Assembly: GCA_905205065.1 (NCBI GenBank)
Contig: CAJLCI010000013.1
Coordinates: 1-52,381, forward strand
Length of the DNA: 52,381 nt
Source of the DNA: an uncultured Eubacteriales bacterium
Lineage (GTDB): Bacteria > Bacillota > Clostridia > Oscillospirales > CAG-272
Reading direction: 5' to 3'
The translations under genes were made by a program, and so were the position numbers. Positions 7,254 to 35,040 of this stretch are shown here, one piece after another; positions within the stretch are counted from its first letter, which is position 1, and every line of letters starts with the position of its first letter. The notes below the pieces were generated by a model. It did no database searches. It was not told the DNA's origin and saw only the letters and a list, made by a program, of their open reading frames with translations.

Positions 7254-7455
7254 CTTTACTAAGCTTGTCCTCTCAATATGGTTATGATTTATTGTATATT
7301 TTTCCCTCCGGTGTTGTAAAATTCGGAGGGGAAATTTTTCATGCAAAAACGATCCTTCAAACAGCGGTTTTCGGCGTCTTGCGGCGTCTTTCTGTGCAAA
7401 CGATTTATGACGAGTATGACGAGATTGCATTTTTTATAATGAAAAGCGAAATACC

Positions 7456-7532
7456 CTGTCTCTATAGGCTGCGGTGTTCACTCACTTTTTCCGGCGGCGT
7501 TACAATTCGCCGCCGGAAAATCTTATTATGGG
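7456..7532 (+). repeat. Dispersed repeat family, copy E (core TGTCTCTATAGGC..TCACTTTTTCCGG-[GGCGGCG..CGCCGCC hairpin]-GGAAAATCTTATTATGGGG + hairpin)
   Basis: Shares conserved blocks with six other loci in this window (see findings). Confidence 0.6.
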
Positions 7533-7562
7533 GCTTTGTCCCCTTATGAAACAGTATGGATT

Positions 7563-7949
7563 TCAGAGAAATCTCGGAGAACGTTCTTTAGAGCTTACTG
7601 CTGCCGCGAGTAATGCCTTTTTCACTTCTGGATCCTGCTCTGTCGTTTCAACATAATACAGTCTGTCTACTTCGCGCTTGGTACCGATTCTTTTAAGCGA
7701 TTCACAAGCCGCGAGCTTTATATCATTGTCATCATCGGTAATGAGCTTCATACAGGTATTCACAGCGAGCTCATCACGTGAAATATCTGCAAGTGCCTTT
7801 ATGGCGAGAAGACGAATCTCCTTTTCTACGGATTCATCGGTGTAAGCTTCGATCTTGGAAGATTTTCTGTCCTCAGTCCATTTTGCTAATTTTTCTTCAA
7901 TCGTTTTGGCTCCGCTGAATATACCTTTAATACTGTCAAGTAATCCCAT
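7563..7949 (-). CDS. HEAT/PBS-lyase-like repeat protein (hypothetical)
   Basis: Start at MGLLDSIKG with RBS GAAAGGAAA. Contains helical repeats of the AL..IG / LAACESLKRIG type. Confidence 0.35.
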   Translation of the reverse strand: MGLLDSIKGIFSGAKTIEEKLAKWTEDRKSSKIEAYTDESVEKEIRLLAIKALADISRDELAVNTCMKLITDDDNDIKLAACESLKRIGTKREVDRLYYVETTEQDPEVKKALLAAAVSSKERSPRFL

Positions 7950-8132
7950 TTTTCGTTTCCTTTCAATAAAGTTATAGTGTATATACATGCTCCGTTTCAG
8001 AATAAACTGTTCTGTGTTGACGGGGCTAAGTATCATCAGATTTTGGAATAAACAGATAATTCCCTCCGTTATCATCATAAAAATTACCCTGATTTTATTG
8101 TCAGCGCAGCTGTTGTCAGCTATTATATGTTT

Positions 8133-8537
8133 TTATGATTCGTGACCGTCATCATCAACAGGATATGCAATTGTAGTCATAAGCGCCATGTTTGTACTTG
8201 ATGTATCAAGACGGCTGTATTGTACTACAATTGGTGTATCGCTTTCAACAATCAGTGCATACGGCGTATCTTTTGGAATCGTATATCCGTCCTTTGATTT
8301 TATTTTATCCATGCGGATATGATTTGTTCGCATAGACGGACATACCGCGCAAAATCCTTGCAGAGCTTCTTTTTGCTCGAACAATAGCGTCATTTTAATA
8401 TGTGCATCGCATCCGCTTGTGTTTATAACGCAGATAGCTTCGTGACTTGGCTGTTCGTCTTTTCCTGATACAGAATTTAAAAACGTATCCGGAATAAGCC
8501 ATGTCTTTTTTCCATAGGCCTTCAATGAATGATCCAT
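8133..8537 (-). CDS. Sensory-rhodopsin-transducer-like (ASRT / DUF1362) small beta-sandwich protein, likely carbohydrate-binding
   Basis: Strings SHEAICVINTSGCDAHIKMTLLFEQKE and IVVQYSRLDTSSTNMALMTTIAY match conserved ASRT family blocks (recalled from memory, not searched). Confidence 0.5.
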   Translation of the reverse strand: MDHSLKAYGKKTWLIPDTFLNSVSGKDEQPSHEAICVINTSGCDAHIKMTLLFEQKEALQGFCAVCPSMRTNHIRMDKIKSKDGYTIPKDTPYALIVESDTPIVVQYSRLDTSSTNMALMTTIAYPVDDDGHES

Positions 8538-8890
8538 CCTTTTGTTAAATAATATTTATTCGGCATATTCAGTTTTTTATAACTTAAAATATAATCCTGA
8601 TATTAATGTGATGACGCTTATTGCGTATTACGAATAAAATATCTACTTCTTAAACAAGGTGCCAATAATAATCGCTCGTCGTAATATCCGTTAAATAGTA
8701 TGAAATGACAGATACGTTATCAAACAAACCGTAAATAAATTGCGTAATATCGAAATCATCTGCGGTTAAAAACAAGAGCTTATATAGCAATGCAAAAATC
8801 TCAAAAATTAATAATATCAGAATATTAACTATATTATAGCACTTTTCTGCGATTTTGCATAGTCTTTTTTTGCAATTTTTTGTAACATAT

Positions 8891-8919
8891 AAAAACCGGT
8901 ACCTGAGGCGCCGGTTTTT
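8891..8919 (-). terminator. Intrinsic terminator downstream of the sugar-phosphate isomerase gene
   Basis: AAAACCGG...CCGGTTTT stem, followed on the minus strand by TTTTTATATG. Confidence 0.5.
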
Positions 8920-8952
8920 CGAGATTTACATTTAAGTCTATGCGAACTATGC

Positions 8953-9846
8953 CTATTTTCTTTTACCCTGATAACCACGGTATTCGCAGGGACCGCAGGT
9001 ATATTGAATTCCGCCTCGGCAGCGCTTCAGATAATTTAAAGCTGTAACTTGTGCCGTCCATTCCATATCGTCGTAATGTACCGGATCGTGATAACCTTCG
9101 ATATCTATAGCGCCTTCAAATCCGTTTTGTATTAAAATGGTTACGATATCAGTCCAGTTTGTATCACCGAAGCCGGGCGTTCTGTTCCATGCAAACTCAT
9201 GGATACCGCGTATGCCGTATTCACGGATGACATCATATGCGACAGTTGCGTCTTTTCCATGCACATGAACTACTTTTTTCGCCCAATTACGCAGCTGTGC
9301 TATTGGATCTATCAGAGCCATCAGCGCATGGCAGGGCTCCCATTCGAGGCCGAGACTGTCGCTTGTGATTTCGTTAAAAATCAGTTCCCATGCTTCCGGA
9401 CAAAAAGCTATGTTATAAGTATCTCCGTTCCATCCGTCTCCGCAGTTTTCAAGACCGATTTTAACACCTTTGTCTTCGGCGAGTTCAACAAGAGGTTTAA
9501 AGGCTCTTACAAAATCGGGAATTGTATCGGGGACGCTTTTTTCATTACCACCGGCAAAAGTCCCTATACAATCGCAGTTGAAAAGATGTGCGTTTTCAAT
9601 TAAAGTGGCAATTCCGCTGCGTTCTTCATCGTTTTTTATGGGATTGCAGTAGAAACCGAGTGCCGAAATTTCTCTGCCTTCGAGTACTTCGTTAATTTGT
9701 TTACTGAATTCATTAATGTCGATTTTAGTGCTTTCCGCTGATCCGAAATTGAGTTCATAAGATTCAAATCCAAGAGGGTTAAGCTGAGGAATCATTTTCA
9801 AAGCATGTTCAGCAGGAATTAAAGTTCCGATTTTAATATCAAACAT
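8953..9846 (-). CDS. Sugar phosphate isomerase/epimerase (xylose-isomerase-like TIM barrel)
   Basis: 297 aa. Contains GLENCG, HGKD and WEPCHA metal-site-like motifs typical of the AP-endonuclease-2 / sugar isomerase fold. Confidence 0.55.
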   Translation of the reverse strand: MFDIKIGTLIPAEHALKMIPQLNPLGFESYELNFGSAESTKIDINEFSKQINEVLEGREISALGFYCNPIKNDEERSGIATLIENAHLFNCDCIGTFAGGNEKSVPDTIPDFVRAFKPLVELAEDKGVKIGLENCGDGWNGDTYNIAFCPEAWELIFNEITSDSLGLEWEPCHALMALIDPIAQLRNWAKKVVHVHGKDATVAYDVIREYGIRGIHEFAWNRTPGFGDTNWTDIVTILIQNGFEGAIDIEGYHDPVHYDDMEWTAQVTALNYLKRCRGGIQYTCGPCEYRGYQGKRK

Positions 9847-9884
9847 AAATATTCTCCCTATTATTAAAATAATGCTAAAAATCT

Positions 9885-10313
9885 TTATTTTCCAATAAAA
9901 ACATTTTCATATTTTTTGTTTTCTTTTTCGGTTTTCTTTAACGAGCGGCGGATAATTAAGGTAATACCAGCAATTATAAAGTATATTATACTCAGAATAA
10001 GACTTGTAATTAAAGCGCCTGCCGTGTTTGAATTTCCGGATATAATTACGAGAAATATTACTAAAAAGCTTATTAAAAAGCCTATATAATGAAGAAATAT
10101 TTTTAAACCGATTCCAAAAGATTTTATATAAAATATGCGGTTTAGTGCGGATAGCAACAATGAAAAAACAAAAAATGCTATTAACGTTTTAAATGTTAGA
10201 ATGAGAGTAGTGAATCCGGCGAGAGTGACGATAGTTTGTGATATGAGAGTGAGCAGTGTAAAAAATAAGCATGCCGGGTAAATGATTGCGGAAATTATCT
10301 TTTTAACTTTCAT
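9885..10313 (-). CDS. Small polytopic membrane protein, hypothetical
   Basis: 142 aa with 4 predicted hydrophobic helices. Preceded by the perfect palindrome at 10339-10361. Confidence 0.4.
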   Translation of the reverse strand: MKVKKIISAIIYPACLFFTLLTLISQTIVTLAGFTTLILTFKTLIAFFVFSLLLSALNRIFYIKSFGIGLKIFLHYIGFLISFLVIFLVIISGNSNTAGALITSLILSIIYFIIAGITLIIRRSLKKTEKENKKYENVFIGK

Positions 10314-10338
10314 GGTCTGTATTTATGTCCTTTTACGT

Positions 10339-10361
10339 ATTAATCACGTATAGTGATTAAT
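10339..10361. promoter_or_regulatory. Perfect 9-5-9 palindrome ATTAATCAC-GTATA-GTGATTAAT, candidate operator about 26 bp upstream of the membrane-protein start
   Basis: Exact inverted repeat read directly from the sequence, in the promoter/5'UTR position of the minus-strand gene. Confidence 0.4.
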
Positions 10362-10749
10362 CATTTTTACTCTATATTATCATATATTTTTTACGTTTTT
10401 GTGATGAAAATAATAATATATCAATAATAACCGAAACAGGTAAAATATATGTGTTTAGTTTGACAAAAATATTATTGTATGTTATAATATCATAAAGCTT
10501 AACGCTTTAAGGGGCGAGATTCATTTCATCGCTAAAACAGTATTTTTTCGATGTTAGCTATGAAATACTGTGCTTTGACAGAAATACCGCAATTTGTGAT
10601 ATGATTCTGCCGAGTCGAATCTTTGCAGTATTTATTTGGAATTGTAGTGCAATTAAATCAAAAATGTCTTATAATTTCGGAATGACATTGTAAGACAGAT
10701 TATATAATTTATATTAAATTTATAAAATTCAGAAGGGGAAATTCAGTTA

Positions 10750-11802
10750 ATGTTTGAAAGGCTCGTCGGGAACGATAAGCTTAAGGCTCTTCTGTCCAGA
10801 GAAATAAGAGAAGGAACGCTTGCTCACGGCTACATAATTGAAGGTCCCGCCGGTATCGGCAAGCATACGCTGGCTTTTGATTTGGTAACCGCTATGGCGG
10901 GATTTGACGAAAAAGGCCTTAAACGTATTAAAGACGGACTTTGCCCTGATATAAGAGTTTTTGGAATTCCGGCCGGACGAAAAACAATAGGTATCGAAAC
11001 AGTTCGGGAGTTTGGCTATCTTTCATCTGTTACACCGAATGAGCTTGATTTTAAAATGACAATTATAGAAAATGCTGATTTTATGACTGTTCAGGCTCAG
11101 AATGCATTTCTAAAACTTCTTGAGGAGCCGCCGGCAGGTGTGTATTTTCTCATGCTCTGTGAAAATGCTTCTGCCTTGCTTCCTACAGTGCGTTCACGTG
11201 CTTCAATACTTAGAATGCTTCGGTGTGATAATGAAAGTATAAAAAGATGTTTAAAAAGCAGCAAAAGGGGTTCTTATATTTTTTCCAGAGATCCTTATGC
11301 CTTTGATGCAATTGTCAGAGCTTCTGACGGCAGAATTGGAAAGGCTCTTGATTTGTGCGGAGAACCGGGTGTCACAGGAGAGCATAATCCCGATTCGGCT
11401 GGTAAAAATTCTATGCAGAAAGCGGCTGAGCTTATAGAATGCATAGCCGGTAGAAGAAGTGCTCCTATTATGCTTTGTATAAGCAAGCTCGGCTCAGACA
11501 GGAATAGGATATCTCTTTTGATGTCTTTTTGTGGTTTAGCTGTTCGTGATTTGATTTTGTGCAAAGCATCTTTGATGGCCGAAAAAGATGCCGATGATAC
11601 TAATGCAATATGTTTGTCGGAGCAGCTGTGTTTTTATGAATCGGGAAACGAAGCTGCAATAAATGCTCAAAGACTATCAATGTCAGAGATTATGCAGTGT
11701 GGCTATGTTTTTTCTATATTTTCAGAGCGCCTTATTCAGAACGGAAATGTAAGGCAAATACTGACCGAGTTGTCATATCAGCTCAGAAAAATTGTATGCT
11801 GA
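10750..11802 (+). CDS. holB: DNA polymerase III subunit delta' (HolB)
   Basis: AAA+ clamp-loader N-terminus LAHGYIIEGPAGIGKHTLA. Position immediately upstream of the ricT/yaaT homolog, as in Bacillus. Confidence 0.75.
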   Translation: MFERLVGNDKLKALLSREIREGTLAHGYIIEGPAGIGKHTLAFDLVTAMAGFDEKGLKRIKDGLCPDIRVFGIPAGRKTIGIETVREFGYLSSVTPNELDFKMTIIENADFMTVQAQNAFLKLLEEPPAGVYFLMLCENASALLPTVRSRASILRMLRCDNESIKRCLKSSKRGSYIFSRDPYAFDAIVRASDGRIGKALDLCGEPGVTGEHNPDSAGKNSMQKAAELIECIAGRRSAPIMLCISKLGSDRNRISLLMSFCGLAVRDLILCKASLMAEKDADDTNAICLSEQLCFYESGNEAAINAQRLSMSEIMQCGYVFSIFSERLIQNGNVRQILTELSYQLRKIVC

Positions 11803-11856
11803 ACTTGTAAAATCAGATGAGACTTTGAGTATGTGCGAAAGGTACGGTTATAATCA

Positions 11857-13590: not shown

Positions 13591-13604
13591 AACCTAAAGG
13601 TTAA

Positions 13605-13840
13605 TTTATAATTAAAAGTGAGATGTTTACATCTTTAAAATATCTATAAAGCATCTGTAAAGACGTTTTTCCGCATAGTTGAAGATGTTCATTTATAAAT
13701 TAAATATCTTTACTTGAAAATATGTTAAGTTGAAAATATGTTAAGTTGTAAATATGTTAATTATAAAGATGTACACTTGTAAAGATGTTTAATTGCAAAT
13801 GTGTTTAATTGTAAAGTTTTTTTGTTTCTGTAGGTTGCGT
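13605..13840. repeat. AT-rich array of about 10 degenerate 15-17 bp direct repeats, core TAAAGATGTTTAATTG / AAAATATGTTAAGTTG
   Basis: AAAATATGTTAAGTTG occurs twice in perfect tandem (13726-13757), followed by TAAATATGTTAATT, TAAAGATGTACACTTG, TAAAGATGTTTAATTG and CAAATGTGTTTAATTG. Confidence 0.6.
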
Positions 13841-14220
13841 ATTCCATTCCTTTTTAGGCGGATGCAATTTATCGACGGTACTCCTAAGGACAATGATTTC
13901 TTTTGTTGAACTGACTGAAAATTTTAAACTGTATTTATTATAAGCAGGAAGTACAGCAATAAAAAGAACTAATACCGAATTAGAACACAGTGGGACTGTA
14001 CAATGTTAAGATATGGACTTGTGTTTTACCTAACTTATATTTTTCTGTTCCTGTAAAATTTGCTGACAAAACGATATTAAACAATCGAATTTAAGGATTT
14101 GTGTTGACTTTATGATTCTTAATCGAGTTTTATGATATAAGTATAAGAATGTATTTGAAAAATGGTATTATAAATGTTCTGAAATGTGAGAATTTACATG
14201 TATAAAATCGTAATTTGTAT

Positions 14221-14249
14221 TTGACATTGTCGTATAAGTATGCTATAAT
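14221..14249 (+). promoter_or_regulatory. Perfect sigma-A consensus promoter (TTGACA, 17 nt, TATAAT) for the ferredoxin mini-gene
   Basis: TTGACA at 14221-14226, 17-nt spacer, TATAAT at 14244-14249. RBS GGAGGTG at 14270-14276. Confidence 0.7.
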
Positions 14250-14570: not shown

Positions 14571-14752
14571 TTTATAAAATCTTAAGTTATATTTATTGAT
14601 TTAAGTAATATAAAATTTCTTGCTTAAATTTAATGATTAAGCTATATAAAATTATAAGCTTAAATTTATTTATTGAGTTATATAATATTTTTGTCTTAAA
14701 TTTATTGATTGAATATTATAAGAAACTTTGTCTATGTTTGTGTGATTGAGTA
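14571..14752. repeat. About 5 tandem degenerate copies of a roughly 36-bp AT-rich unit (TATAAAAT..CTTAAATTTATTGATT.AG)
   Basis: Units start near 14571, 14609, 14645, 14683 and 14719, in the region upstream of trmN6. Confidence 0.55.
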
Positions 14753-17563: not shown

Positions 17564-17652
17564 TTCTATATTATCATTCCTTTCTGCCGGCCGAAGTTAT
17601 ATGATAGCTTAAGCCTGCAAAGGCACTAATTTTTTAATAACCAAAAGTGAAA

Positions 17653-17745
17653 TGTCCGTGTCTGTGAGCTGTCCACGTCTGTAGGGGATGGGTTCCGTTC
17701 ACTTTTTCTGGATGATACAATCCATGTCGGAACGCCTTATTACGG
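17653..17745 (+). repeat. Dispersed repeat family, copy A (TGTCCGTGTCTG..TGTCCACGTCTGTAGGGG..GTTCCGTTCACTTTTTCTGG-[hairpin]-CGGAACGCCTTATTACGGG)
   Basis: Lies in the 286-bp gap between the ABC permease and ATPase genes. Confidence 0.6.
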
Positions 17746-17849
17746 GACAAATCCTTATTGAACAAATAAAAATATTCTTGCCGCATAAATTATGACTGTA
17801 AAAACGGTTTTTGCTAAGATATATTGTTGTATTCCGTGTATTATGTTAT

Positions 17850-18785: not shown

Positions 18786-18941
18786 AAAAATCCCCCAATA
18801 AGGCTTAAAATCTGAATTTCAGATTTATATATTGTATAACTAAAAAAATAAAGCGTCTCCTGCCTGTCACGGCGGCCGCCGTTTTTGGTATTAACGTCTT
18901 ATACATCGCGGCAACAATAGTTGTTGCCGCGATGTATTTTA

Positions 18942-22695: not shown

Positions 22696-22849
22696 TTCGG
22701 CGTATATACATTAACGGAAAAACAAGTATATATAAAAAGTATGACAGAATGAAGCTTTCGTCGCTGTATTGTGTCGGAGATAGGACGTATACTTTTAAGA
22801 CAGTCAAGTTACGTTTCATTTTTTCGGCTGTTGTATAATAACCGGGGAA

Positions 22850-25630
22850 ATGCCGCAGGACGGCGTGATGTGCTTTATTAAAACAGAAGGTACCGGATGC
22901 ATAAACCGAAAACCGAGTTTTTATTTTTATGCTTTGCGGTATGTGCTATTATTTCAGAAAGGAACGGTTACGGAAGAATTGAAAGAATTATCAACGCGTT
23001 ACTTTTCTCCCGCGGATGACAGTATTGAAGGTTGGGAGGCGTACTCTATTCCGATGGGCAACGGTTTCATCGGTGCAAATATTTTCGGTCGTACGGACCG
23101 TGAACGGATTCAGATAACTCAGAATTCATTCGTTGCCTCGAATGCCGAGGGAGGCCTTACAGATTTTGCAGAGCTGTATTTTGAATTCGGACATAACACT
23201 GTCGAAAATTATGAGCGCAAACTGAATATCGATAATGCTCTTGCTTCGGTTCACTATAGCTTTGGCGGAGTAAAATATGAAAGAGAGTATTTTATCTCTT
23301 ATCCTGACAGAGTATTAGCTGTAAAATTTACCGCTTCAAAGGATGGCACGCTTAATTTTACATACGCTCCTACTATTCCGTTTGTCCGTGATTACGCCAA
23401 GACTCCCGGTGATGGCGGAGGCAGAACGGCTAATATAGAATGCAGCGGAGGAAAAGCAAATATTCACGGACAGATGAACTGCTACAAACTTCAGTATGCT
23501 GTAAGCACAAGTGTTGAAAGCGACGGAACTATTTCGAGCTTTGAAGGGAAAATCAGAGTGGAAAATGCGTCATATGCTGTTGTATACTTCTGCACAGACA
23601 CTAACTATAAGCTTTCTTCAAAAATATTTCTTGAGCAGGACAATCTGAAAAAGCTTGAATATGAAGATGTACGCCCCAAAGTAAATTCATATCTGGAAGC
23701 TGCGGAAGCGCTCGGATATGATAAGCTTAAAGAGCGTCATATCTCTGATTACCGCAGTATATTTGCCCGTACGGAGTTTGAACTTGAATGCGATATACCG
23801 GAAGATGAAACACCGGAACTTATCAAACGCTATTCTGAGGGAGAGAGAATTCCGTATCTTGAGATGCTCTATTTTCAGTTTGGAAGATATCTTCTTATTT
23901 CTTCTTCCCGTCCGGGCGGTCTTCCGGCGAATTTACAGGGAATTTGGAATGCTCATGAGCGTTCACCGTGGGGAGCGGGATATTGGTTTAATATTAATGT
24001 TCAGATGAACTATTGGCCCGCATTTACAACGAATATGACGGAAATGTTTAAGCCGTATGCGGATTTATTTGAAGCTATTATGCCGCAGTGTCAGAAATAT
24101 GCAAGCGAATTTGTAAAGGAAAACAATCCTGAGCAGTATGTAGACGGCGAAGGAGAGTGCGGCTTTGCCATTGGAACAAACAACTGGCCGCTTGAGGTTT
24201 CGCCGCCGGACCGCTGTGGAGGTCCCGGAAACGGAGGACTTGCTTCCAAATTGCTGTGGGAGTATTATGACTTCACACGTGATAAAGAAATTCTTGAAAG
24301 ATATACGTATCCGGCGCTTAAAGAAGTTAGCAAATTCTCGACAAAGGCTGTGAGAAAGTACGGAGATGAATATTTGATCTCTCCTTCAGTATCTCCGGAA
24401 CAGGTTCTCAACGGAGCATGGGTAGGCGGAGCGTGCTACTATGTCACTGTAGGGTGCGCGTATGATCAGGAGCTTATTTATGAAAACGGAAAGGATTTTC
24501 TTAAGGCTGCGGAATTACTCGGTATGGATGGACAGGCAGAGAAAATCCAGCGCGAACAGATAGATCATTATTCGCCGATACGTATCGGATGGTCCGGTCA
24601 GATTAAAGAATTTCCGGAAGAAAACCTGTACGGAGAAATCGGAGAATGGTGGCACAAGCATATTTCACATATGATGGCGGTTTATCCCGGAAATACGGTT
24701 ACTTCAGAAACACCGGTTTGGCAGGACGCCGCTGCTGTTTCTCTGAAATACCGCTGTGACGGTCACCTTCAGACAGGCTGGTCGATTGCACAACGAGTTA
24801 ATGCATGGGCAAGAACAGGAGAGGGCGATGATTGCTATAAGTGTCTGCGTTTCCTGATTGGAGAACGCACATATCCGAATTTATTTGACGCACATCCTCC
24901 TTTCCAGATTGACGGTAACTTTGGTGGAACTTCGGGCATAGCTGAAATGCTTATGCAGAGCCATGAAGGGTATATATCGGTTTGTCCGTGTCTGCCGGGC
25001 GAATGGTCGGAAGGTCGTTTTTCAGGTCTGGTGGCAAGAGGAAATTTTGTAGTTGATGCCGAATGGAAATCCGGAACTCCGTTTACTATTCGAATAACTT
25101 CTCGTGTCGGCGGACCCGTGAAGATTAAATCGGGAAATGTTTCGCTTGCAAGTGTCACATCCGATGGAGAGGCGGTATCTGCAGTTTCAGACGGACTTGA
25201 TTTTATCAGCTTTGATACTGAACCCGGAAAAACATACCTTCTCGAAAAAATTCCGGGAAAAGCAAATCTTACCCGTCCTGCAAATCTCGTGATTGATCGT
25301 GAATCGCTTCATCTTACATGGACACCGTCGCCTGAAAAAGGAGTTACATACAAGGTATACCGTGCATGTGATCAGACACCGGTCTATGATGTTATTGCAG
25401 AAGGTTTGACATCTCCCGAATTTACCGATAATAATCTTGACTTTTCAAAGCATGAGGTTGTAATTTATAAGGTTTCAGCAGTTTCTTCTGACGGTATGAC
25501 CGAGAGCATGGGAACTCATGAGGCAATTAACCATGCATCAGAGCTGTATCTTGAACGATATAAGCTTCTTCACGCAGAAAAGGATGTTGCGCCTTATTAT
25601 AATATGACAATAAAGAACTGTTTTAAATAA
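22850..25630 (+). CDS. Glycoside hydrolase family 95 (alpha-L-fucosidase-like) with a C-terminal Ig/FN3-like extension
   Basis: GH95 catalytic-domain motifs LQGIWNAHERSPWGAGYWFNINVQMNYWPA. 926 aa. The exact start is uncertain (ATG at 22850 or 22868). Confidence 0.65.
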   Translation: MPQDGVMCFIKTEGTGCINRKPSFYFYALRYVLLFQKGTVTEELKELSTRYFSPADDSIEGWEAYSIPMGNGFIGANIFGRTDRERIQITQNSFVASNAEGGLTDFAELYFEFGHNTVENYERKLNIDNALASVHYSFGGVKYEREYFISYPDRVLAVKFTASKDGTLNFTYAPTIPFVRDYAKTPGDGGGRTANIECSGGKANIHGQMNCYKLQYAVSTSVESDGTISSFEGKIRVENASYAVVYFCTDTNYKLSSKIFLEQDNLKKLEYEDVRPKVNSYLEAAEALGYDKLKERHISDYRSIFARTEFELECDIPEDETPELIKRYSEGERIPYLEMLYFQFGRYLLISSSRPGGLPANLQGIWNAHERSPWGAGYWFNINVQMNYWPAFTTNMTEMFKPYADLFEAIMPQCQKYASEFVKENNPEQYVDGEGECGFAIGTNNWPLEVSPPDRCGGPGNGGLASKLLWEYYDFTRDKEILERYTYPALKEVSKFSTKAVRKYGDEYLISPSVSPEQVLNGAWVGGACYYVTVGCAYDQELIYENGKDFLKAAELLGMDGQAEKIQREQIDHYSPIRIGWSGQIKEFPEENLYGEIGEWWHKHISHMMAVYPGNTVTSETPVWQDAAAVSLKYRCDGHLQTGWSIAQRVNAWARTGEGDDCYKCLRFLIGERTYPNLFDAHPPFQIDGNFGGTSGIAEMLMQSHEGYISVCPCLPGEWSEGRFSGLVARGNFVVDAEWKSGTPFTIRITSRVGGPVKIKSGNVSLASVTSDGEAVSAVSDGLDFISFDTEPGKTYLLEKIPGKANLTRPANLVIDRESLHLTWTPSPEKGVTYKVYRACDQTPVYDVIAEGLTSPEFTDNNLDFSKHEVVIYKVSAVSSDGMTESMGTHEAINHASELYLERYKLLHAEKDVAPYYNMTIKNCFK

Positions 25631-25705: not shown

Positions 25706-25738
25706 TTATAGCTATAATTATAGCTAATTATAGCTATA
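25706..25738. promoter_or_regulatory. Three tandem copies of the self-complementary decamer TATAGCTATA / TATAGCTAAT
   Basis: TTATAGCTATAAT, TATAGCTAAT and TATAGCTATAAG read directly from the sequence. They sit between the GH95 stop and repeat copy F. Confidence 0.35.
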
Positions 25739-25750
25739 AGCGAGATACCG

Positions 25751-25905
25751 CCGTCTTGTAAAATGCTCGTCTCAATAAGCGGCGTTTTCCGTTCGTTTTT
25801 TTGCGGCTGCAGTACAATCGTCGCCGGAATGCTTTATGACGGTGCTCTGTTCCTGAGTGAATTTTATTTGCAATAGATAGACATAAGGGGCTGCCCTACT
25901 GCGAC
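25751..25905 (+). repeat. Dispersed repeat family, copy F (CCGTCTTGTA..CGTCTCAATAAGCGG..CCGTTCGTTTTTTTGCGG-[hairpin]-CGCCGGAATGCTTTATGACGG + GGGGCTG..CAGCCCC hairpin + TTATGAAA)
   Basis: Intergenic between the GH95 gene and the membrane-protein gene. Confidence 0.6.
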
Positions 25906-25977
25906 AGCCCCTTATGAAATATATATATAATATGTACGTTGGAACTCTTATCATATGTTGGAAAGGTGTGTTAATAT

Positions 25978-27982: not shown

Positions 27983-28022
27983 TTTGCCCATCCTTTTTAT
28001 TTAATTATAACTAATAGCAAGA

Positions 28023-28120
28023 TGTCCACCTGTCTGAAAAGGTTTTGTCTCTATAGGCGGCGGGAACGATCACTTTTTCCGGTGGTAGATGTTTCGCCGC
28101 CGGAACGCATTGTGACGTGG
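28023..28120 (+). repeat. Dispersed repeat family, copy B (TGTCCACCTGTCTG..TGTCTCTATAGGCGGCGGGAACGATCACTTTTTCCGG-[hairpin]-CGCCGCCGGAACGCATTGTGACGTGG)
   Basis: About 40 nt upstream of the fruK start codon, on the antisense strand. Confidence 0.6.
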
Positions 28121-28353
28121 TTTTTCCTTGTTAAATTTTTATGATATAAATATGGGTATACATTTTATATTAAGTCATCAAATTATAGTATATATGTGCA
28201 GAAAATATTATTTTTATGAAATCCGAATGGAAAAAAATAAATTAAAAGATTAATAGTGTAAAATTATGAAAGAATAGAGGCATAAAAGAATGAATTAACA
28301 TCATACTGTTAATTAGTATAAAGCTTTATTACCTATGTATTTTATGCTTAAAT

Positions 28354-28390
28354 TTAAGACCACCGGAAATACGGTGGTCTTAAATTTTTC
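28354..28390. terminator. Perfect-hairpin terminator (TTAAGACCACCG-GAAATA-CGGTGGTCTTAA + ATTTTT) downstream of the GH36-like gene
   Basis: 12-bp perfect stem with flanking A/T runs on both strands. Confidence 0.65.
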
Positions 28391-28416
28391 ATTAATTTGT
28401 TGAGTCAGAACATTGT

Positions 28417-30552
28417 TTAAATGTTTTGAGTAAAAGAAACTTTCCAGTTTACCGTCTTGTTTTCGCTGTTATCGGGTTTCAGCGTAAGTATGTTGTCTAT
28501 AACTTGTCCATCTGTTGGTTTATAGCCATCCGGAACGTATATGAAAATCTGATAATCATCATTCTTTACAACCTTTGAACTACCTTTAAGGCAAAGAGAT
28601 TCATCGTCCCAGCATACAGAAACAAGCTCTGCCGCGCCCTGAGAAAGGTGACGGCTTGTTGATGCAATTTGGGGTTTTCCAGTTACCCGGCGTACAGCGC
28701 ATACTGCAGATGCGTTAGAGGAAAGTGAAAGCTCGATTTCCTTGTTGTATATTCCAAGAAGTTTTTTGTTCCAAAAGTCAAACACAAGATAATCGCCATC
28801 TTCAATATGAAGGTGATTCTGAAGATTTACGGTATATTTTGCATCACAGTCCTGCATATTGAGAAGATCAAAGACATTCCAGCATTCAAACGCAGTATTA
28901 ACCGCCAGTGTTACAAAGAAGCGTTTTCCATCATGCGTTGACTCTCTTATATCCATTGGGTGGATGTCGAGCGTGGGAAGTGCGCGGCGCAGCATTTCAA
29001 TACGGTCGGCAGGAAGCTCTGTTAGCTCATCTCCGAATGTTACGGGAAGACCGAGCAGCGAAACCGCCGATACTCTCGATTTTGCCTGTTCAAAATTGCT
29101 GAATTCGGGACGAATGACTACATTATCGGGATCGCAGTAAAATGATACGTTATGGAAGGAATAAAAACGCAAAATTCTTTCAACAAAATCACCTATAAAG
29201 TCGCACCAGTGGAAAATATCATTTCCTATTCTTGCCGTGTCGGCTACATCAGACAGCATCAGAACTTCACGGTCATTTCCTCCGGCGCAAGACATCATAT
29301 AGAAATCGTCTCCTGCAACTTCGCGGGCTTTAAGGCATACGCGGCGCAGTGCTTCTGTAGAAGTAATTTCGGGATGCTTAAGAACTTCATGATATGCATC
29401 TGCATATCCTACAGTGGTGGGAAGACAATCCCATTTTACGGCATCAAATCCCCATTCCTTAATTTGATTGAAAGCACGCGGAATTAATTCATTTATTACA
29501 CGTTCGTCCGTAATGTCAAAGAAGTATTTTCCACACCATGTAGTGCAGTCTGTATAGATACAGTCTTCAAATTCCTTGCAGATTTCAGTGAATCCAGGCT
29601 CTATCGTCGGGGCAACCCATAAAACCGGAATAAATCCGAGTTTTTTTATCTCATCCGACATGTATTTAAAACCATGAGGATATTTTTCTGAATTGGGCTG
29701 GAAAAATCCGATGTTATCAGGAGCGTTTTCGTCTCCGAAATCTCTGTGGCACCAATCCCAGTCGATCCATATTGTCTGAGCTCCGTAGTCATACAAAAAT
29801 TCGCGTTGAAATCTTGCATTTTTAAGAACTCTTTCTTCGTTTGCCTCAAATTTGATGGAATACCATGTCATCCATCCTGTATGGGCGGTTGGAAATGCAT
29901 TATTCTTGTTTATGCAGGAATATTTGGTGCGGAAACGTGTTTCATAAACGTGAATAATGGATTCTACAGTGAAAAATCCGCGTGCTTCAAATGTGTAACA
30001 GCCGTCTGCGTGGGAGAAACCGAGCTTTCTTCCTTTGCTTCCCGAAAAACGCAGCGCCTCGTCGCATTTGCGGTCAAATAGACAGTCATCGATTGTGGAA
30101 GAAGCTGGACCGTATGCAGCCCGAAGATCATCTGATGAAATGTCACGGTCAAGACACATAGCAAAGCAGTCTTCAACTTTTCCGAAGTGAACATTGCCTG
30201 AAATTACAGGAGTAATATCATCGGGAAGAAATTCAGCTTCAGCTTCGATTCGGTCACGCTTAACACGGAAGGTAAAATTTGTCTGTTCTGAAAATCCGTC
30301 CGGAGCTTCTGTAAGCTCCATTCTAATCATTGAGTAAGTTTCGTGCAACGGCTGATCCCATACATACTTTACTGATCCGAAGGAACAAAGATCTGCTATA
30401 GTTTTTCCTTCAGAATTTTCAAAACGGACCGAAATATTATCTGCGATTATTCCATGTCCTTCATATATAAAACGGGAGAGCCTTGTTTTAGGATCAATTT
30501 GAACTGCGAGGTCAAAATAATTGACATATGTATTGTTGCGTTCGTGCTGCAT
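28417..30552 (-). CDS. Glycoside hydrolase clan GH-D (GH36-like alpha-galactosidase family)
   Basis: Start set at MQHERNNTYV with RBS GGAAAGGAAAAA (the track ORF starts 25 codons earlier). GWMTWYS, WIDWDW and KWD nucleophile-like motifs. Confidence 0.5.
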   Translation of the reverse strand: MQHERNNTYVNYFDLAVQIDPKTRLSRFIYEGHGIIADNISVRFENSEGKTIADLCSFGSVKYVWDQPLHETYSMIRMELTEAPDGFSEQTNFTFRVKRDRIEAEAEFLPDDITPVISGNVHFGKVEDCFAMCLDRDISSDDLRAAYGPASSTIDDCLFDRKCDEALRFSGSKGRKLGFSHADGCYTFEARGFFTVESIIHVYETRFRTKYSCINKNNAFPTAHTGWMTWYSIKFEANEERVLKNARFQREFLYDYGAQTIWIDWDWCHRDFGDENAPDNIGFFQPNSEKYPHGFKYMSDEIKKLGFIPVLWVAPTIEPGFTEICKEFEDCIYTDCTTWCGKYFFDITDERVINELIPRAFNQIKEWGFDAVKWDCLPTTVGYADAYHEVLKHPEITSTEALRRVCLKAREVAGDDFYMMSCAGGNDREVLMLSDVADTARIGNDIFHWCDFIGDFVERILRFYSFHNVSFYCDPDNVVIRPEFSNFEQAKSRVSAVSLLGLPVTFGDELTELPADRIEMLRRALPTLDIHPMDIRESTHDGKRFFVTLAVNTAFECWNVFDLLNMQDCDAKYTVNLQNHLHIEDGDYLVFDFWNKKLLGIYNKEIELSLSSNASAVCAVRRVTGKPQIASTSRHLSQGAAELVSVCWDDESLCLKGSSKVVKNDDYQIFIYVPDGYKPTDGQVIDNILTLKPDNSENKTVNWKVSFTQNI

Positions 30553-30701
30553 AATATTTTTCCTTTCCGATACCGGTAGGATTTTTTTAATCCAATCCTT
30601 TTTATTATTTAGAATGATAAAAATCAATCTATTGCGTGCATTATATCAAATGACACTTCTAAAGTCAACCGGTTTCTTTAAAATTTTTAATTATTTTATT
30701 C

Positions 30702-30729
30702 TTGACAAACCGCAGGATTTGTGTTATCA
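30702..30729 (+). promoter_or_regulatory. Sigma-A promoter with extended -10 (TTGACA, 16 nt, TGTTATCAT) driving the FMN riboswitch
   Basis: TTGACA at 30702-30707. TATCAT at 30724-30729 with a TG 2 nt upstream. Confidence 0.6.
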
Positions 30730-30751
30730 TTTCATTAAATAAAGAATATAT

Positions 30752-30957
30752 TTATTCTTCGGGGCAGGGTGTAATTCCCGATCGGCGGTAAAGTCCGCGA
30801 GCGCGTATTGCGCAGATTTGGTTAGATTCCAAAACCGACAGTTAAAGTCTGGATGAAAGAAGAAACGGCATTGGTATGCAGATCTTTTTCTGTATATCTG
30901 CAAATTTCATCGCTTTCAGCAGATCCTCCGGAGAGTATCCGGAGGATCTTTTCTTAT
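30752..30957 (+). ncRNA. FMN riboswitch (RFN element) with an intrinsic-terminator expression platform
   Basis: Aptamer TTCGGGGCAGGGTGTAATTCCCGATCGGCGGTAAAGTCCGCGAGCGC...GATTTGGTTAGATTCCAAAACCGACAGTTAAAGTCTGGATGAAAGAAGA matches the RFN consensus. Terminator AGATCCTCCGGA-GAGTA-TCCGGAGGATCT + TTTTCTT at 30921-30957. Confidence 0.9.
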
Positions 30958-30974
30958 AACCAAATGCGAGATGA

Positions 30975-31080
30975 TGCCGACTATAAGACGTTTACCTCTA
31001 AAATCGGCGGTTTTTACTCACTTTTTCCGGCGCCTCCTGCGATGGTTTGGCCGGCCGACGAAACGCCTTACAATGGGTTT
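30975..31080 (+). repeat. Dispersed repeat family, copy C (..AATCGGCGG..TCACTTTTTCCGGCGCC..GATGGTTTGG..CGAAACGCCTTACAATGGG)
   Basis: Located between the FMN riboswitch terminator and the ribU RBS. Confidence 0.55.
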
Positions 31081-31147
31081 CTTCACCTTTTTGAAATATT
31101 TTCCGGATGCTGAATTTTTTAGGTTAAAAACCGGAAAGGAAAACATT

Positions 31148-31843
31148 ATGAACGAACTAAAAAAAGAAAAATCCAAAATTCTTCGAGTTGCCATGATAGG
31201 AATGCTTTGTGCGCTTGCGTATATAGCGGTTGCTTTCGGACGAATTCCTGTAGTACTGTTTCTTAAATATGATCCCAAGGATGTGATAATTGCTCTCGGC
31301 GGTTTGTCGCTTGGCCCGGCCGCTGCCGCGCTAATTTCTCTGATTGTATCTTTTTTGGAAATGATAACAATATCGGAAGACGGTGTTATCGGATTCCTGA
31401 TGAATGTAATTTCAACTTGCTCATTTGCATGTATCGCGTCCATAATATATAAAAAGAAGCACGATTTTAAGGGCGCTGTTCTCGGACTCTTTTCCGGATG
31501 GCTGTCAATGATTATATTGATGATTCTCTGGAATTGGATTATCACTCCGCTGTATATGGGAATACCGCGTTCCGCAGTTGTAGATCTTCTTATCCCTGCA
31601 TTTCTGCCTTTCAATTTTGTGAAAGGTGGACTGAATATGTCGCTCACACTTATTTTATACAAGCCGATAATGCTTGCGCTGAGACGCTCACATCTTCCTA
31701 TTTTTGATAATGTTGAATTGTCGGAATTATCATCGGCGCCCCTGAATAAGTCGCCACGCTTCCGATTTAAGGCGATTTTTGCCGCACTTCCGATTTTGGC
31801 GGTCAGTGTTGTGGTTATGATTTGGCTTATGACAAATTCATGA
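31148..31843 (+). CDS. ribU: Riboflavin ECF-transporter substrate-specific component RibU-like, with a C-terminal extension
   Basis: Start set at MNELKKEKSKILRVAMIGML with RBS AAAGGAAA (the track ORF includes 59 upstream codons that overlap repeat copy C). 5-6 TM helices. Downstream of the FMN riboswitch. Confidence 0.65.
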   Translation: MNELKKEKSKILRVAMIGMLCALAYIAVAFGRIPVVLFLKYDPKDVIIALGGLSLGPAAAALISLIVSFLEMITISEDGVIGFLMNVISTCSFACIASIIYKKKHDFKGAVLGLFSGWLSMIILMILWNWIITPLYMGIPRSAVVDLLIPAFLPFNFVKGGLNMSLTLILYKPIMLALRRSHLPIFDNVELSELSSAPLNKSPRFRFKAIFAALPILAVSVVVMIWLMTNS

Positions 31844-31867
31844 CAGCCGGTAGAAACTGTATCTAAA

Positions 31868-32132
31868 AGCAAGCTGTTTGCCGTCTGCAAGTCATTCGTA
31901 TGTAAGTCGTTTTCATGTAAAGCTGTTCGCTTGTGCCTGTAAAACAGCTGTTCACTTGCGCCTGTCAAAGCTGTTCGCGGTGTGCCTGTAAAACAACTGT
32001 TCACTTGCGCCTGTCAAAGCTGTTCGCGGCGTACCTGTAGAACAAACTGTTTGCTTATGCCTGTAAAACTTGTTCGTATGTGGCCTGTGAAGCCCATTTG
32101 CGTTTGCGCGAAAAACCGTTCGCTTCTGCAGG
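31868..32132. repeat. Tandem array of about 9-10 degenerate 23-26 bp repeats (CTGTTCRCKKGYGCCTGTMAAAR). Includes a 49-bp unit duplicated almost perfectly
   Basis: AGCTGTTCACTTGCGCCTGTCAAAGCTGTTCGCGG(T/C)GT(G/A)CCTGTA(A/G)AACAA occurs twice in tandem. Flanking copies are more diverged. No spacers, so not CRISPR. Confidence 0.7.
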
Positions 32133-32210
32133 CGTCGGCCGACTGAATTTTTTCCGCTGATGGTTTAGTCCTCCATCGGAATGCCTTATGGCGGAGCTTC
32201 GCCACTTCTT
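32128..32210 (+). repeat. Dispersed repeat family, copy D (..TTTTTTCCGCTGATGGTTTAGTCCTCCATCGGAATGCCTTATGGCGG + GGCGGAGCTTCGCC hairpin)
   Basis: Immediately follows the 31868-32132 tandem array and precedes the terminator at 32238-32270. Confidence 0.55.
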
Positions 32211-32237
32211 GAGTTAAAATAAACTGTCACGGACTTG

Positions 32238-32270
32238 TACCCCTGTATTTTCAGCAGGGGTATTTTTATT
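32238..32270 (+). terminator. Intrinsic terminator (ACCCCTG-TATTTTCAG-CAGGGGT + ATTTTTATT) immediately after repeat copy D
   Basis: 7-bp GC-rich stem followed by a T-run. No annotated gene ends nearby (ribU stops about 400 nt upstream). Confidence 0.55.
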
Positions 32271-32376
32271 AGTCCGGACAGCTATTCGGTTATATAAGCT
32301 ATTGATTATTTAATAAATGGTTCAAGCTTTCAGCAAAGGCAGAATATTATCTATACAGTATAACTAAATTATCAGT

Positions 32377-33576
32377 TTAGTTTTGTTTTGTATTTTCAGT
32401 ATGACCATTTTCAGATATATCATGTAACGTGTTTTCAGAAATCATATCAGACAGTCCTTTTTTCGAAAGTCGTTTGGCGGAATTTTCTTTGATAATAGTA
32501 ATAATTACCGCCGTGAGCGGAATAAAAAACAATATACCGATGATTCCGAAAAGGCTTCCACCAATGAGAGCTGCAACAAGTGTATACAGCGCGGAAAGAC
32601 CTACGGAATTTCCGACAACATGAGGATAAATAAACTGATTTTCAATAAACTGCACACACAGATAAACAATGACACATAGTATTGCCTTCGAAGGGTCAAC
32701 GATAAATGCAAGCAAGACGGAGACAACGCATGACAGTGTAGCTCCTACGTATGGCAAAAGCGCGCAGAAAGCGGTGATAACACCAACAAGGCTTGCGTAA
32801 GGCAGGCGAAAAACAGAAAATGCTATGAACATAAGAACGCCGAGAATAATTGCTTCAAAGCATTGTCCTGACAAAAACTTTGCAAAGGTTTTTCCGAAAA
32901 GAGAACAAAAATAAGTGATTCTGTCCGCCGCAGGCTTTTTAAGGTATGCATATACTAAGTATTTTGCCGATCTGCAAAGATGTTTTTTATCGAGCACCAT
33001 ATAGATTGCTATGATAACAGCAAAAACAAATGATATTGTAATATTTACAGTTGAAGATATAACACCGATAAATGATGACAGAAAAGACGTTAGATAGGAC
33101 GAGACATTTTTCATAAGACCTTCAAGATCTATTTTTGATATTATTTTTGAAATCCATTCTGTTGAAATTCCTCTTTCGGATAGAAATTTGAGCAGATATT
33201 GAAGCAAATCCGGAATTCTCTTTTCGGCGATACTGTAAATGCTTTGTACTGACTGGAGAAGAGCGGGTACTATAAAAGCCGTAACAAGAGTTATCGCAAG
33301 AAGAATGCATATAATTGTAAAGATAAAGCTTGTTATCAGAATCGTTTTATCAGACGGCTTATGTTTTCTTTTGACGAATATTTTTCTGATGATTTTTTCG
33401 GTACCGCAGACGGGTACGCTTATGAATAATGCCAGTATAGCTCCTACTATAACCGGCATCATCAAAGACAGAAGGGTGCTGGCAATACTGATTACGGATG
33501 AAAAATTCATTAAAATTGCAAAGATTAATGCACCGCATATTACAAGTATCAGATTTTGCTTTAATTTTTTATCCAT
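32377..33576 (-). CDS. AI-2E family transporter (PerM/YhhT-like)
   Basis: 399 aa, 7-8 TM helices. Family block FIENQFIYPHVVGNSVGL. Confidence 0.7.
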   Translation of the reverse strand: MDKKLKQNLILVICGALIFAILMNFSSVISIASTLLSLMMPVIVGAILALFISVPVCGTEKIIRKIFVKRKHKPSDKTILITSFIFTIICILLAITLVTAFIVPALLQSVQSIYSIAEKRIPDLLQYLLKFLSERGISTEWISKIISKIDLEGLMKNVSSYLTSFLSSFIGVISSTVNITISFVFAVIIAIYMVLDKKHLCRSAKYLVYAYLKKPAADRITYFCSLFGKTFAKFLSGQCFEAIILGVLMFIAFSVFRLPYASLVGVITAFCALLPYVGATLSCVVSVLLAFIVDPSKAILCVIVYLCVQFIENQFIYPHVVGNSVGLSALYTLVAALIGGSLFGIIGILFFIPLTAVIITIIKENSAKRLSKKGLSDMISENTLHDISENGHTENTKQN

Positions 33577-33578
33577 TG

Positions 33579-34295
33579 TTAAAAAGACTGTATCCCTTCT
33601 TCAGTATTTTTCTCGATTGTAGCTTTGATTTGCTGCATTTTCAAATCAAGCAGTGCGCTGGTTTCTGCACATTCCTTAAGATCTTTTGCAGTGCTTTCTA
33701 AGATTTCATCAGAAAGATTTTTTTTGTATCGCAAACGATGCTCAATATTTGCCCAAAATTCCATAGCAATTGTTCTGAACTGTACTTCGACCTTCATGCT
33801 TCGTTTGCCCTGCTGTAAAAAAATCGGGATTTCAACGATAAGATGAAGACTTCTGTATCCATTTTCTTTAGGTTTGATTATGTAATCTTTTTCTGCAATA
33901 ACTTTAATATCATCCTGTTTGCTCAGACATTCGGCGAGCATGTAAATATCGTCTATGAAAGAACAGATTACACGTACGCCTGCAATGTCATAAATATTGC
34001 TTTCGACTGATTCTATCGTCATCGGCAGATTTTTACGTATCATTTTTTCTGTTATACTCTCTATGGATTTCAGCCGTGTGCGGATACTTTCAATCGGATT
34101 TCTCTCATGACGAAGTGAAAACTGTTCGTCAAGTACTTTAAATTTTGTTTCAACCTCAAGAATGGCACAGCGGTAGTAGGACATCAGCGTTTTTGCGTTT
34201 AATATATAGTTTTTCAGTTTGTCTGCGTCAGTCTCGAAGTCAGGCGTGCTTTTAAGGTGTGCTGTTTTAAGTCTTGACGGTAAATTATTTTCCAT
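33579..34295 (-). CDS. relQ: Small alarmone synthetase (RelQ/RelP, YjbM/YwaC family GTP pyrophosphokinase)
   Basis: RelA/SpoT synthetase-domain blocks DIAGVRVICSF, GYRSLHLIVEIP and EVQFRTIAMEFWANIEH. Stop is 2 nt before the AI-2E start. Confidence 0.75.
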   Translation of the reverse strand: MENNLPSRLKTAHLKSTPDFETDADKLKNYILNAKTLMSYYRCAILEVETKFKVLDEQFSLRHERNPIESIRTRLKSIESITEKMIRKNLPMTIESVESNIYDIAGVRVICSFIDDIYMLAECLSKQDDIKVIAEKDYIIKPKENGYRSLHLIVEIPIFLQQGKRSMKVEVQFRTIAMEFWANIEHRLRYKKNLSDEILESTAKDLKECAETSALLDLKMQQIKATIEKNTEEGIQSF

Positions 34296-34831
34296 TGTAA
34301 AGATGTGCCTTTCTAAATGTATGGCTCTATTATATTTATAAAATCGGAAAGAACCTCGTTATTTTTTTCGGCAGAACTGCTTATATATAAACTCAATTAT
34401 ATATTATACTCCCGGTCTTAAAAAAATCAACACATAACACGTAATTTTATAAACTGGAGTCAAATTAATATTACAGAAAAGTATATCAAAGTGTATCATA
34501 ATAGGAATTTGAAGGGGCATAGTGTGACATACATCGACAGATTGTATACACTTGAAAAATGAATAAAAGCGCTTTAAAGTCAAATATCTTGCAACCGAAT
34601 GCCCGCATGTCTGATTTATACATGTCTGATTGTCTGATTTATAAAAGAATGTCGGTTTTACAGCCGCCTATTCGGCGGACAAATATATTGTTGTGATATT
34701 GCGAGGAAACTGCATAAATGACATTATTTGAGTTAATAAAAAAGGACACGCGTCGATTTTTCTGAGTTGAATTAGACATGATTTCGGCGATGTCCTTGTT
34801 GTAATTAAATATGAATATAACTAAAAGCATG

Positions 34832-35040
34832 ATGTCTGTATCTGTAAGGTGTCCTCGCGTAAAGATATTTGCATGTAAAGGCGTATGCGTGCAAAAGCAT
34901 TCGCGTATAAAGACATTCGCATGCAAAGGTGTTCGCGCGTAAAGGCGTTTGTCTCTTCAGACTCTCTTCAAACGGTCAGATCCGCTCGTTTTTTTAGCGT
35001 CGGTGCACTTCACTACAGGATCCGCCTTATGATATGACAC
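34832..35040 (+). repeat. Dispersed repeat family, copy G. It contains an internal array of about 8 short (about 12 nt) GCGTRYRMAAAG-type tandem repeats
   Basis: GATGTCTGTATCTGTAAGGTGTCC, then (GCGTAAAGATATTTGCATGTAAAGGCGTATGCGTGCAAAAGCATTCGCGTATAAAGACATTCGCATGCAAAGGTGTTCGCGCGTAAAGGCGTTTG), then GTCTCTTCAGACTCTCTTC..CCGCTCGTTTTTTTAGCG..GGATCCGCCTTATGATATGACACG. Confidence 0.55.

Follow-up and report, generated by a model that had tools for sequence, protein, structure and literature searches.

Insertion sequences (ISs) of the IS200/IS605 group target the lagging-strand template, where they integrate on the 3′ side of a tetra- or pentanucleotide (PMC5027513). They lack terminal inverted repeats (TIRs) and leave no target duplication (PMC7290912), and they are oriented with the replication fork, especially in Firmicutes (PMC3971601). 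The described systems closest to the one reported here include their ends-only derivatives, the palindrome-associated transposable elements (PATEs), and the repetitive extragenic palindromes (REPs) and bacterial interspersed mosaic elements (BIMEs) that are associated with RAYT (TnpA-REP) proteins. Here we describe a family of short intergenic repeats in a 52,381-nt stretch of DNA from an uncultured Oscillospiraceae bacterium (contig CAJLCI010000013.1, positions 1 to 52,381; this whole stretch is referred to as the window). The family is new and is of the PATE or miniature inverted-repeat transposable element (MITE) kind; it is not a new class of regulatory RNA. It is very probably a mobile, non-autonomous element, and our favored reading, to which we give a probability of roughly 55%, is that of a PATE-like MITE moved in trans by a Y1 HUH transposase via a single strand, as in the "peel-and-paste" transposition of IS200/IS605.

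Copies in the window, their turnover and their orientation

A preliminary description of the window, made from the sequence alone, had reported seven intergenic loci carrying one modular element in the same orientation. Both points are borne out. The core TCACTTTTTCCGG is found exactly at 7482, 28070, and 31018 and with one mismatch at 17699, the 3′ block CGGAAYGCMTTATKACGG has four matches in the window versus 0.13 expected, and MAFFT, nhmmer, and covariance model (CM) alignments each unite all seven loci. Five more copies or relics (H, I, J, K, and E') likewise lie on the + strand, so that the window holds ~12 copies or relics in a single orientation, with lengths of 112 to 351 nt. In the following list, copy starts are set one base 3′ of TATAA, slashes mark junctions, and L numbers denote fetched loci.

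215..337, + strand: copy H, full length (123 nt), after TTATAA; nhmmer E=8.5e-7; CM 51.3 bits, E=3e-9.
7340..7425, + strand: E', a possible partial copy beside E, with GGCGTCTTGCGGCGTCTTTCTGT repeats and the CGATTTATGACGAG block and without the core hairpin; its assignment, read directly from the sequence, is uncertain, and the stretch is missing from relative L020.
7440..7551, + strand: copy E, the best-preserved window copy; CM 72.6 bits; DNA fold z=-5.7; absent in L020; its hairpins are a central 13-bp stem (TTTTCCGGCGGCG paired with CGCCGCCGGAAAA, loop TTACAATT) and then GGGG paired with CCCC.
13612..13910, + strand: copy I, long, AT-rich, and degenerate, with a 16-nt tandem array at 13702-13816 in the 5′ module (Tandem Repeats Finder, TRF); CM E=0.002; left end TTATAA/TTAAAAGTGAGATG, right end CTTTTGTTGAA.
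17641..17762, + strand: copy A, within an ABC-transporter operon and antisense to it; CM 60.1 bits; empty site in L017.
18840..18898, + strand: relic K, consisting of the left end ATAA/CTAAAAAAATAAAGCGTCTC, a GC hairpin, and a T-run; orthologous to a full copy at L017 8669-8824 (alignment of site S4).
22792..22883, + strand: copy J, short and degenerate; CM 32.4 bits, E=4e-5.
25734..25861, + strand: copy F, in the 3′ untranslated region (UTR) of a GH95 gene, upstream of that gene's terminator; CM 59.9 bits; empty site in L010.
28011..28134, + strand: copy B; CM 54.3 bits; same sequence in six strain contigs.
30960..31095, + strand: copy C, downstream of the FMN riboswitch terminator and upstream of the ribU start codon (31148); CM 46.2 bits; the empty site in L010 is CTTATATATATATTC.
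31863..32213, + strand: copy D, long form, starting just past the ribU stop codon, with ~6 to 10 units of a 25-nt tandem repeat (TRF 31919-32076); CM 56.6 bits for the 3′ module; empty site in L010.
34821..35070, + strand: copy G, long form, with a 16-nt tandem array at 34861-34928; CM E=0.002; absent in L010; left end ATATAA/CTAAAAGCATGATGTC, right end CCTTTTTGAA.

The loci first named were right, but their extents had been drawn too short and are corrected here: only the last 85 nt of D had been seen, and the true units of D and G include the tandem arrays. Conversely, the hairpin after F (25888-25915; GGGGCTG...CAGCCCC plus TTATGAAA), which had been assigned to the element, is the terminator of the host gene and is kept in relatives without F. 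By a tally of coordinates, element sequence comes to ~1.9 kb, or 3.6% of the window and ~16% of its intergenic DNA, at a density of ~1 element per 4.5 kb.

We compared the window with syntenic contigs of close relatives, whose neighboring proteins belong to the same 90% clusters as those of the window. Where the window has F, C, D, G, A, and E, relatives (L010, L017, and L020) have an uninterrupted short spacer. Conversely, full copies occur in relatives at five sites (S1, S2, S3, S5, and S6) at which the window has none. A sixth site, S4, is common to both, with a full copy in relatives and the decayed relic K in the window. B is bordered by sequence that agrees with the empty site of L010, on the left as far as TTATAA and on the right over TTTTT; this empty site is less clean because relatives have a DUF3788/DUF3795 gene in that spacer. 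Since copies differ in position between relatives in both directions, we conclude that the element moves. Within the species, A is fixed in seven strains and B is also fixed, D has two tandem units fewer in strain L051, and the allele of A in L032 has a 6-nt deletion in the 5′ module. Insertions thus come and go over the time in which species diverge, and the copies decay afterwards: tandem units grow or shrink, 5′ parts are lost, and stems erode.

Several of these sites show further rearrangement. Between the genes for a 722-aa protein and PfkB (27992-28416), relatives carry a 240-aa DUF3788/DUF3795 gene and the window carries B and ~280 nt of AT-rich filler, which indicates loss or replacement of the gene there. 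In L051 (7426-8023; also in L055 and L056), the G allele is 5′ truncated to ~75 nt running from the T-run to TTGAA, in flanks that are ~99% identical. This remnant differs from window G by ~12%, far more than the flanks do, which could reflect gene conversion between copies or local hypermutation. At site S1, where L010 has a full copy, L014 (~9840-9870) retains only the last 24 nt (ATGACGGGCAAGCCCCTTATTGAA). Among the three partial copies, the L014 and L051 remnants retain the right end, and relic K retains the left end.

The insertion site is well defined. TATAA or a one-mismatch variant lies directly 5′ of ~30 distinct copies, with no fixed base ahead of it (among 14 tallied by eye, 5 T, 7 A, 1 G, and 1 C). 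The base after the right-end TTGAA is random, and right flanks show no repeat of the left flank. At empty sites, the sequence is TATAA, TTATA, or TTAAA. The cleanest pair, S2, reads GTCAGCTTATAA/CTTAGG...CTTATTTAA/TTTTAC when filled and GTCAGCTTAAATTTTAT when empty; here the left flank ending in TATAA joined to the right flank equals the empty site save for one indel, and at B the agreement is exact. These comparisons suggest that insertion duplicates no target sequence, or at most a constant 2-bp AA.

Orientation is nearly uniform as well. The chance that all 12 window copies would share one strand is ~1 in 2000, and across 227 kb of the window, relatives, and metagenome contigs, 46 of 47 CM hits are co-oriented within their contig. 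Third-codon GC skew is +0.15 on the + strand and -0.18 on the coding strand of minus-strand genes; the + strand is thus G-rich for genes of either strand and is therefore the leading strand, that is, the lagging-strand template. Orientation and skew agree in 7 to 8 of nine independent contigs, including L040 and L041, which have all genes on the other strand. Relative to neighboring genes, C, F, and D are sense and A, K, E, B, and G are antisense, and polarity therefore follows replication and not transcription. Just past the left edge of the window, relative L020 (18243-18329) has the 3′ end of a 23S rRNA gene directed into the window, an arrangement of the rRNA operon that supports the + strand as leading. 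Taken with presence/absence at orthologous sites and the defined insertion site, this leading-strand orientation upholds the MITE- or REP-like, replichore-oriented feature envisaged in the preliminary description.

Element architecture, hairpins, and the question of an RNA function

Read on the + strand, the element follows TATAA with the left end CYAAAAGCRAGATGTC, 1 to ~10 short repeat units, a T-run, a hairpin with a variable stem, the ACGCCTTATGACGG block, a 4- to 5-bp GC hairpin, and the right end CTTATTGAA. The short units of the 5′ module, which resemble the 3′ block, have a consensus of about CGYCTnTAAGGC and occur as GTCTGTAGG, GTCTCTATAGGCGG, or GCCATTAAGGC or in 16- or 25-nt tandem versions. 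The stem of the main hairpin varies by copy, and (G)ATACAAT is a frequent loop. Every left end in the fetched loci has its right end at a distance of 110 to 350 nt, with no open reading frame (ORF) between the two. The termini are weakly complementary (CYAAAAG...CTTATTG, ~5 of 7 terminal bases) and have no conserved terminal dinucleotide pair. There is also some subterminal complementarity between GTCCCGYC and GACGGGGC, with a few matching changes (CCAC with GTGG in B). At the right end, a conserved 5-bp GC hairpin lies 8 nt from the tip and is paired in 89% of alignment cells, while the left end has variable hairpins only; a direct motif, CGCCATT, is common to both ends in subfamily 2.

Two main subfamilies were distinguished: the window type, which is old and heterogeneous, and the "CTTAGGCAAGATGTCCCGCCATTAAGG" type, which is far more homogeneous and predominates in sister lineages and metagenomes. 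In some subfamily-2 copies (L010 9703-9874 and L037 21-189), a further perfect hairpin, GGCAGGTTGGCTTTGCCAACCCTTGCC, separates the central hairpin from the 3′ block and looks like a nested mini-insertion. A scan of metagenomes with the right-end pattern returned 26 loci, of which ~23 are true members from gut-type assemblies, and the family is therefore widespread in the clade. A strict-pattern scan of genome contigs gave three matches, all due to chance, and nothing relevant matched in plasmid, phage, and viral-contig searches. In the literature, we found no described MITE in Oscillospiraceae and no account of the family itself.

In a 47-sequence CM alignment, 79% of cells are paired, compared with 43 to 57% when partners are slid; double changes occur in 13 of 17 pairs, and none of 500 shuffles reaches the observed covariation score. 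Because the alignment is fitted to its own model, the pairing and covariation figures are flattered, and we regard the stem covariation first noted in the preliminary description as real but modest. Such covariation is equally expected for hairpins in single-stranded DNA. On the top strand, there are 63 G.T pairs versus 31 A.C pairs. Folding is strong (z of about -5) for E and young subfamily-2 copies, while H, A, F, B, and C, five of the six short window copies folded, are no better than shuffled sequence on either strand (z of about 0). The hairpins matter while the element is active and then erode, which is the behavior of selfish DNA and not of a host RNA gene.

The preliminary description had also raised the possibility of a novel structured RNA. 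In its fullest form, this alternative holds that the + strand of the elements is transcribed into a family of structured small RNAs or a cis-acting RNA motif, possibly from an internal promoter (TTCACN-17/18-TACAAT) and with the GC hairpin plus UUAUU as terminator. The covarying hairpins and the G.U-compatible changes on the + strand are in its favor, a -35/-10-like pair with a spacing of 17 to 18 nt occurs in E, A, and L039, and the novelty of the sequence to Rfam makes an undescribed RNA conceivable on that ground. However, the lack of any Rfam match (at E<=5 for the elements and at E<=1 for subfamily-2 copies) also counts against it, as do the near-zero fold scores of most short window copies. 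Furthermore, copies come and go between close relatives at otherwise conserved sites, and they are placed without regard to gene context, in 5′ UTRs, 3′ UTRs, and operon spacers and in either transcriptional sense. The promoter-like hexamers are missing in B, C, and D and poor in subfamily 2, and a strong + strand terminator in C, which lies in the spacer between riboswitch and ORF, would silence ribU. We therefore consider an RNA of either kind very improbable, and a dedicated RNA gene family unlikely.

Narrower functional assignments were considered and rejected. A leader or 5′ UTR element of minus-strand genes, suggested by the positions of E, A, and B upstream of such genes, does not fit F, C, and D or the relatives without copies. 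An intrinsic terminator is unlikely because neither strand has the classical form: on the + strand, the T-run comes ahead of the main hairpin, and on the minus strand, the hairpin is followed by a run of A. Copy C, moreover, lies inside an expressed 5′ UTR. Spacing misfits a sigma-54 or sigma-70 promoter at the left end. A tracrRNA-like resemblance on the minus strand (AAUAAGGC...GAAAAAGUG) is a coincidence, given that there is no Cas gene, and so is a resemblance to E. coli REPs (GAACGCCTTAT), given that the taxa are unrelated. An integron attC site is contradicted by ends that misfit the RYYYAAC...GTTRRRY core sites and by neighbors that are housekeeping genes in mixed orientation.

Candidate routes of transposition

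We favor the HUH route because of the fixed 5′ pentanucleotide, the apparent lack of a duplication, the poor TIRs, the hairpin near the right tip, and the orientation with respect to the lagging-strand template. Under this reading, a Y1 HUH transposase encoded elsewhere in the genome would cut 3′ of TATAA at the left end and 3′ of TTGAA at the right end, would free a single-stranded circle with the junction TTGAA/CTTAGGCAAGATG, and would reinsert it 3′ of another TATAA on single-stranded DNA. The two proposed cut sites resemble each other. The cut sites of IS608, TTAC and TCAA, are likewise alike. Mobility, insertion site, orientation, hairpins, and a duplication of no more than 2 bp were observed, whereas the enzyme and the single-stranded intermediate are what we infer from them.

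Several observations weigh against this reading. No Y1 gene was matched in tblastn searches of 427 kb of fetched loci with IS608 and IS200 TnpA, and the same 427-kb sample yielded no autonomous element bearing these ends. No hairpin at the left end clearly corresponds to that at the right end, whereas IS200/IS605 hairpins are normally alike. Fold energies do not separate the two strands, and the excess of G.T pairs could be due to C-to-T mutation bias of the leading strand instead of selection for folding. A lone copy, L027 7405-7547 (CM match 7459-7547), is reversed relative to its two neighbors; local skew is weak there, and the copy may represent a small inversion or a true exception. The partly complementary ends look like weak inverted repeats, and a duplication of AA is possible because target and element both end in AA. 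Finally, IS families other than IS200/IS605 are also orientation biased in Firmicutes (PMC3971601). A protein homologue search with Salmonella IS200 TnpA returned enterobacterial IS200 only and is uninformative on the Oscillospiraceae lineage.

An alternative that we regard as rather unlikely is a conventional MITE that moves by double-strand cut-and-paste transposition and derives from an IS with a DDE transposase. Its TIRs would be imperfect, it would always duplicate 2 bp (AA) at a target resembling TATAA, and its orientation bias would be brought about by contact of the transposase with the replisome. The complementarity of the ends, both terminal and subterminal, speaks for it, as do filled/empty pairs compatible with an AA duplication, the AT-rich target, and the strong orientation bias of several DDE families in Firmicutes (PMC3971601). 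Yet the inverted repeats are poor for such an element, at ~5 of 7 terminal bases and no conserved terminal dinucleotide pair. There is no variable duplication, the base after TTGAA being random, and no DDE transposase was seen in any fetched locus. In our judgement, 98% co-orientation at a short target is also stronger than expected for a DDE family, although the survey of orientation in Firmicutes gives P values and not per-family proportions (PMC3971601).

A missing parent could instead mean that a single-copy, domesticated Y1 protein of the RAYT (TnpA-REP) type, not an IS, spreads the repeats, as in a REP/BIME-like system, and the host might then use them as mRNA-end or nucleoid-structuring elements. 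This alternative shares the single-strand HUH logic of the favored reading, would suit the very dense distribution and the absence of an IS parent from the searched loci, and draws on the diversity of Y1 subclasses with associated repeats (PMC6006769, PMC3333891). We nonetheless find it distinctly unlikely, since the elements are modular and 112 to 351 nt long and not palindromes of 20 to 40 nt, do not alternate in orientation as in BIMEs, and are accompanied by no RAYT gene in the fetched loci. Presence that varies between close species and the decay of old copies also speak against a host function. A more radical possibility, which we hold to be quite unlikely, is that there is no IS parent at all and that an unrecognized, possibly domesticated single-strand enzyme acts at forks, in a Firmicutes counterpart of REP/RAYT built of long, modular, BOX-like units, or that the right end plus flank gives rise to a guide-like RNA serving a nuclease encoded elsewhere. 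Either reading, if true, would explain the strand polarity, the high density, and the missing autonomous copy.

The apparent lack of a target duplication is also compatible with a non-autonomous element derived from some other site-specific recombinase system that leaves no duplication, of the IS110/IS1111 or IS607 type. Repeats that are subterminal and not terminal and the single orientation at the target would agree with such an origin, and IS110 and IS607 are orientation biased in Firmicutes. But only 5 nt of the target are conserved, compared with the longer sites of IS110-type elements, there is no GG core as in IS607, and no such recombinase was seen in the fetched loci. We give this explanation very little weight.

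Genomic setting and comparison with known systems

The window is ordinary chromosome and carries housekeeping genes on both strands. The proteins encoded in it are identical to PWM274xx entries named "MAG: ... [Oscillospiraceae bacterium]" (MAG, metagenome-assembled genome), and contig QALB01000003.1 of GCA_003343545.1 carries an identical gene neighborhood. Among the genes are those for a topoisomerase subunit A (topoisomerase IV ParC or GyrA type), a GyrB/ParE-type subunit, ABC transporters, GH95, PfkB, hydrogenase-like proteins, Obg, a ligase, and ribU after an FMN riboswitch; none of the window's genes encodes a transposase, an integrase, or a Cas protein. Rfam matches in the window are the FMN riboswitch and a tRNA-Arg and nothing else. 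The riboswitch (114 bits) and its terminator hairpin, at 30751-30950, control ribU, which encodes the S component of an ECF riboflavin transporter (31148-31843), and the tRNA-Arg(CCG) gene lies at 46975-47051 on the + strand. Upstream of a methyltransferase gene, the spacer contains an AT-rich 36-nt tandem repeat of ~4 units (14573-14721) with no relation to the element family.

Three spurious or over-extended ORFs in the window overlap element copies. The ORF listed at 30971-31843 is over-extended through element C, the start codon of ribU being at 31148. The topoisomerase subunit A ORF (5052-7430) has 792 aa versus 732 to 733 aa in most members of its cluster; its true start is probably near 7250, and the 60-aa extension enters the region of E'. 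More generally, copies are a likely cause of contig breaks and miscalled ORFs in MAGs. Because their positions differ between sister species of uncultured gut Oscillospiraceae, they also mark recent genome change, and their near-perfect orientation with replication offers a cheap guide to replichore direction where these organisms are represented by fragmentary contigs. If the HUH mechanism is true, the family would be among the densest PATE-like expansions in Firmicutes known to us, a statement that rests on no systematic comparison, and would provide a natural system in which to study fork-coupled transposition.

TIR-type MITEs derived from DDE ISs, such as Correia/NEMIS and RUP, resemble the family in their length of ~100 to 150 nt, AT-rich targets, and end-to-end folding, but they have clear TIRs and a TA duplication and, to our knowledge, no strand polarity. 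In architecture, the family recalls the BOX elements of Streptococcus pneumoniae: they too are intergenic and non-coding and have conserved left and right modules around a variable number of repeats (boxA-boxB(n)-boxC). We know of no mobilizing enzyme for BOX and of no replication orientation or TATAA insertion site like that of the window family. REPs and BIMEs are, like the window elements, very abundant intergenic repeats; they are thought to be handled as single-stranded hairpins by Y1 HUH proteins and require no IS parent. They differ in that REPs are single palindromes of 20 to 40 nt, often head to head, whereas the window elements are longer, modular, and co-oriented.

PATEs remain the closest comparison. 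The window family departs from them in that no parent IS or Y1 gene was identified in the 427-kb sample, in its left end without a hairpin resembling the right one, in its internal array of 1 to ~10 short repeats, and in a density far above the single PATE-like copy in Halanaerobium (PMC7290912). In other respects, the two agree: both are small, non-coding, and intergenic, are inserted 3′ of a fixed pentanucleotide, apparently with no target duplication and no real TIRs, carry a subterminal hairpin near the right end, and are oriented with respect to the lagging-strand template.

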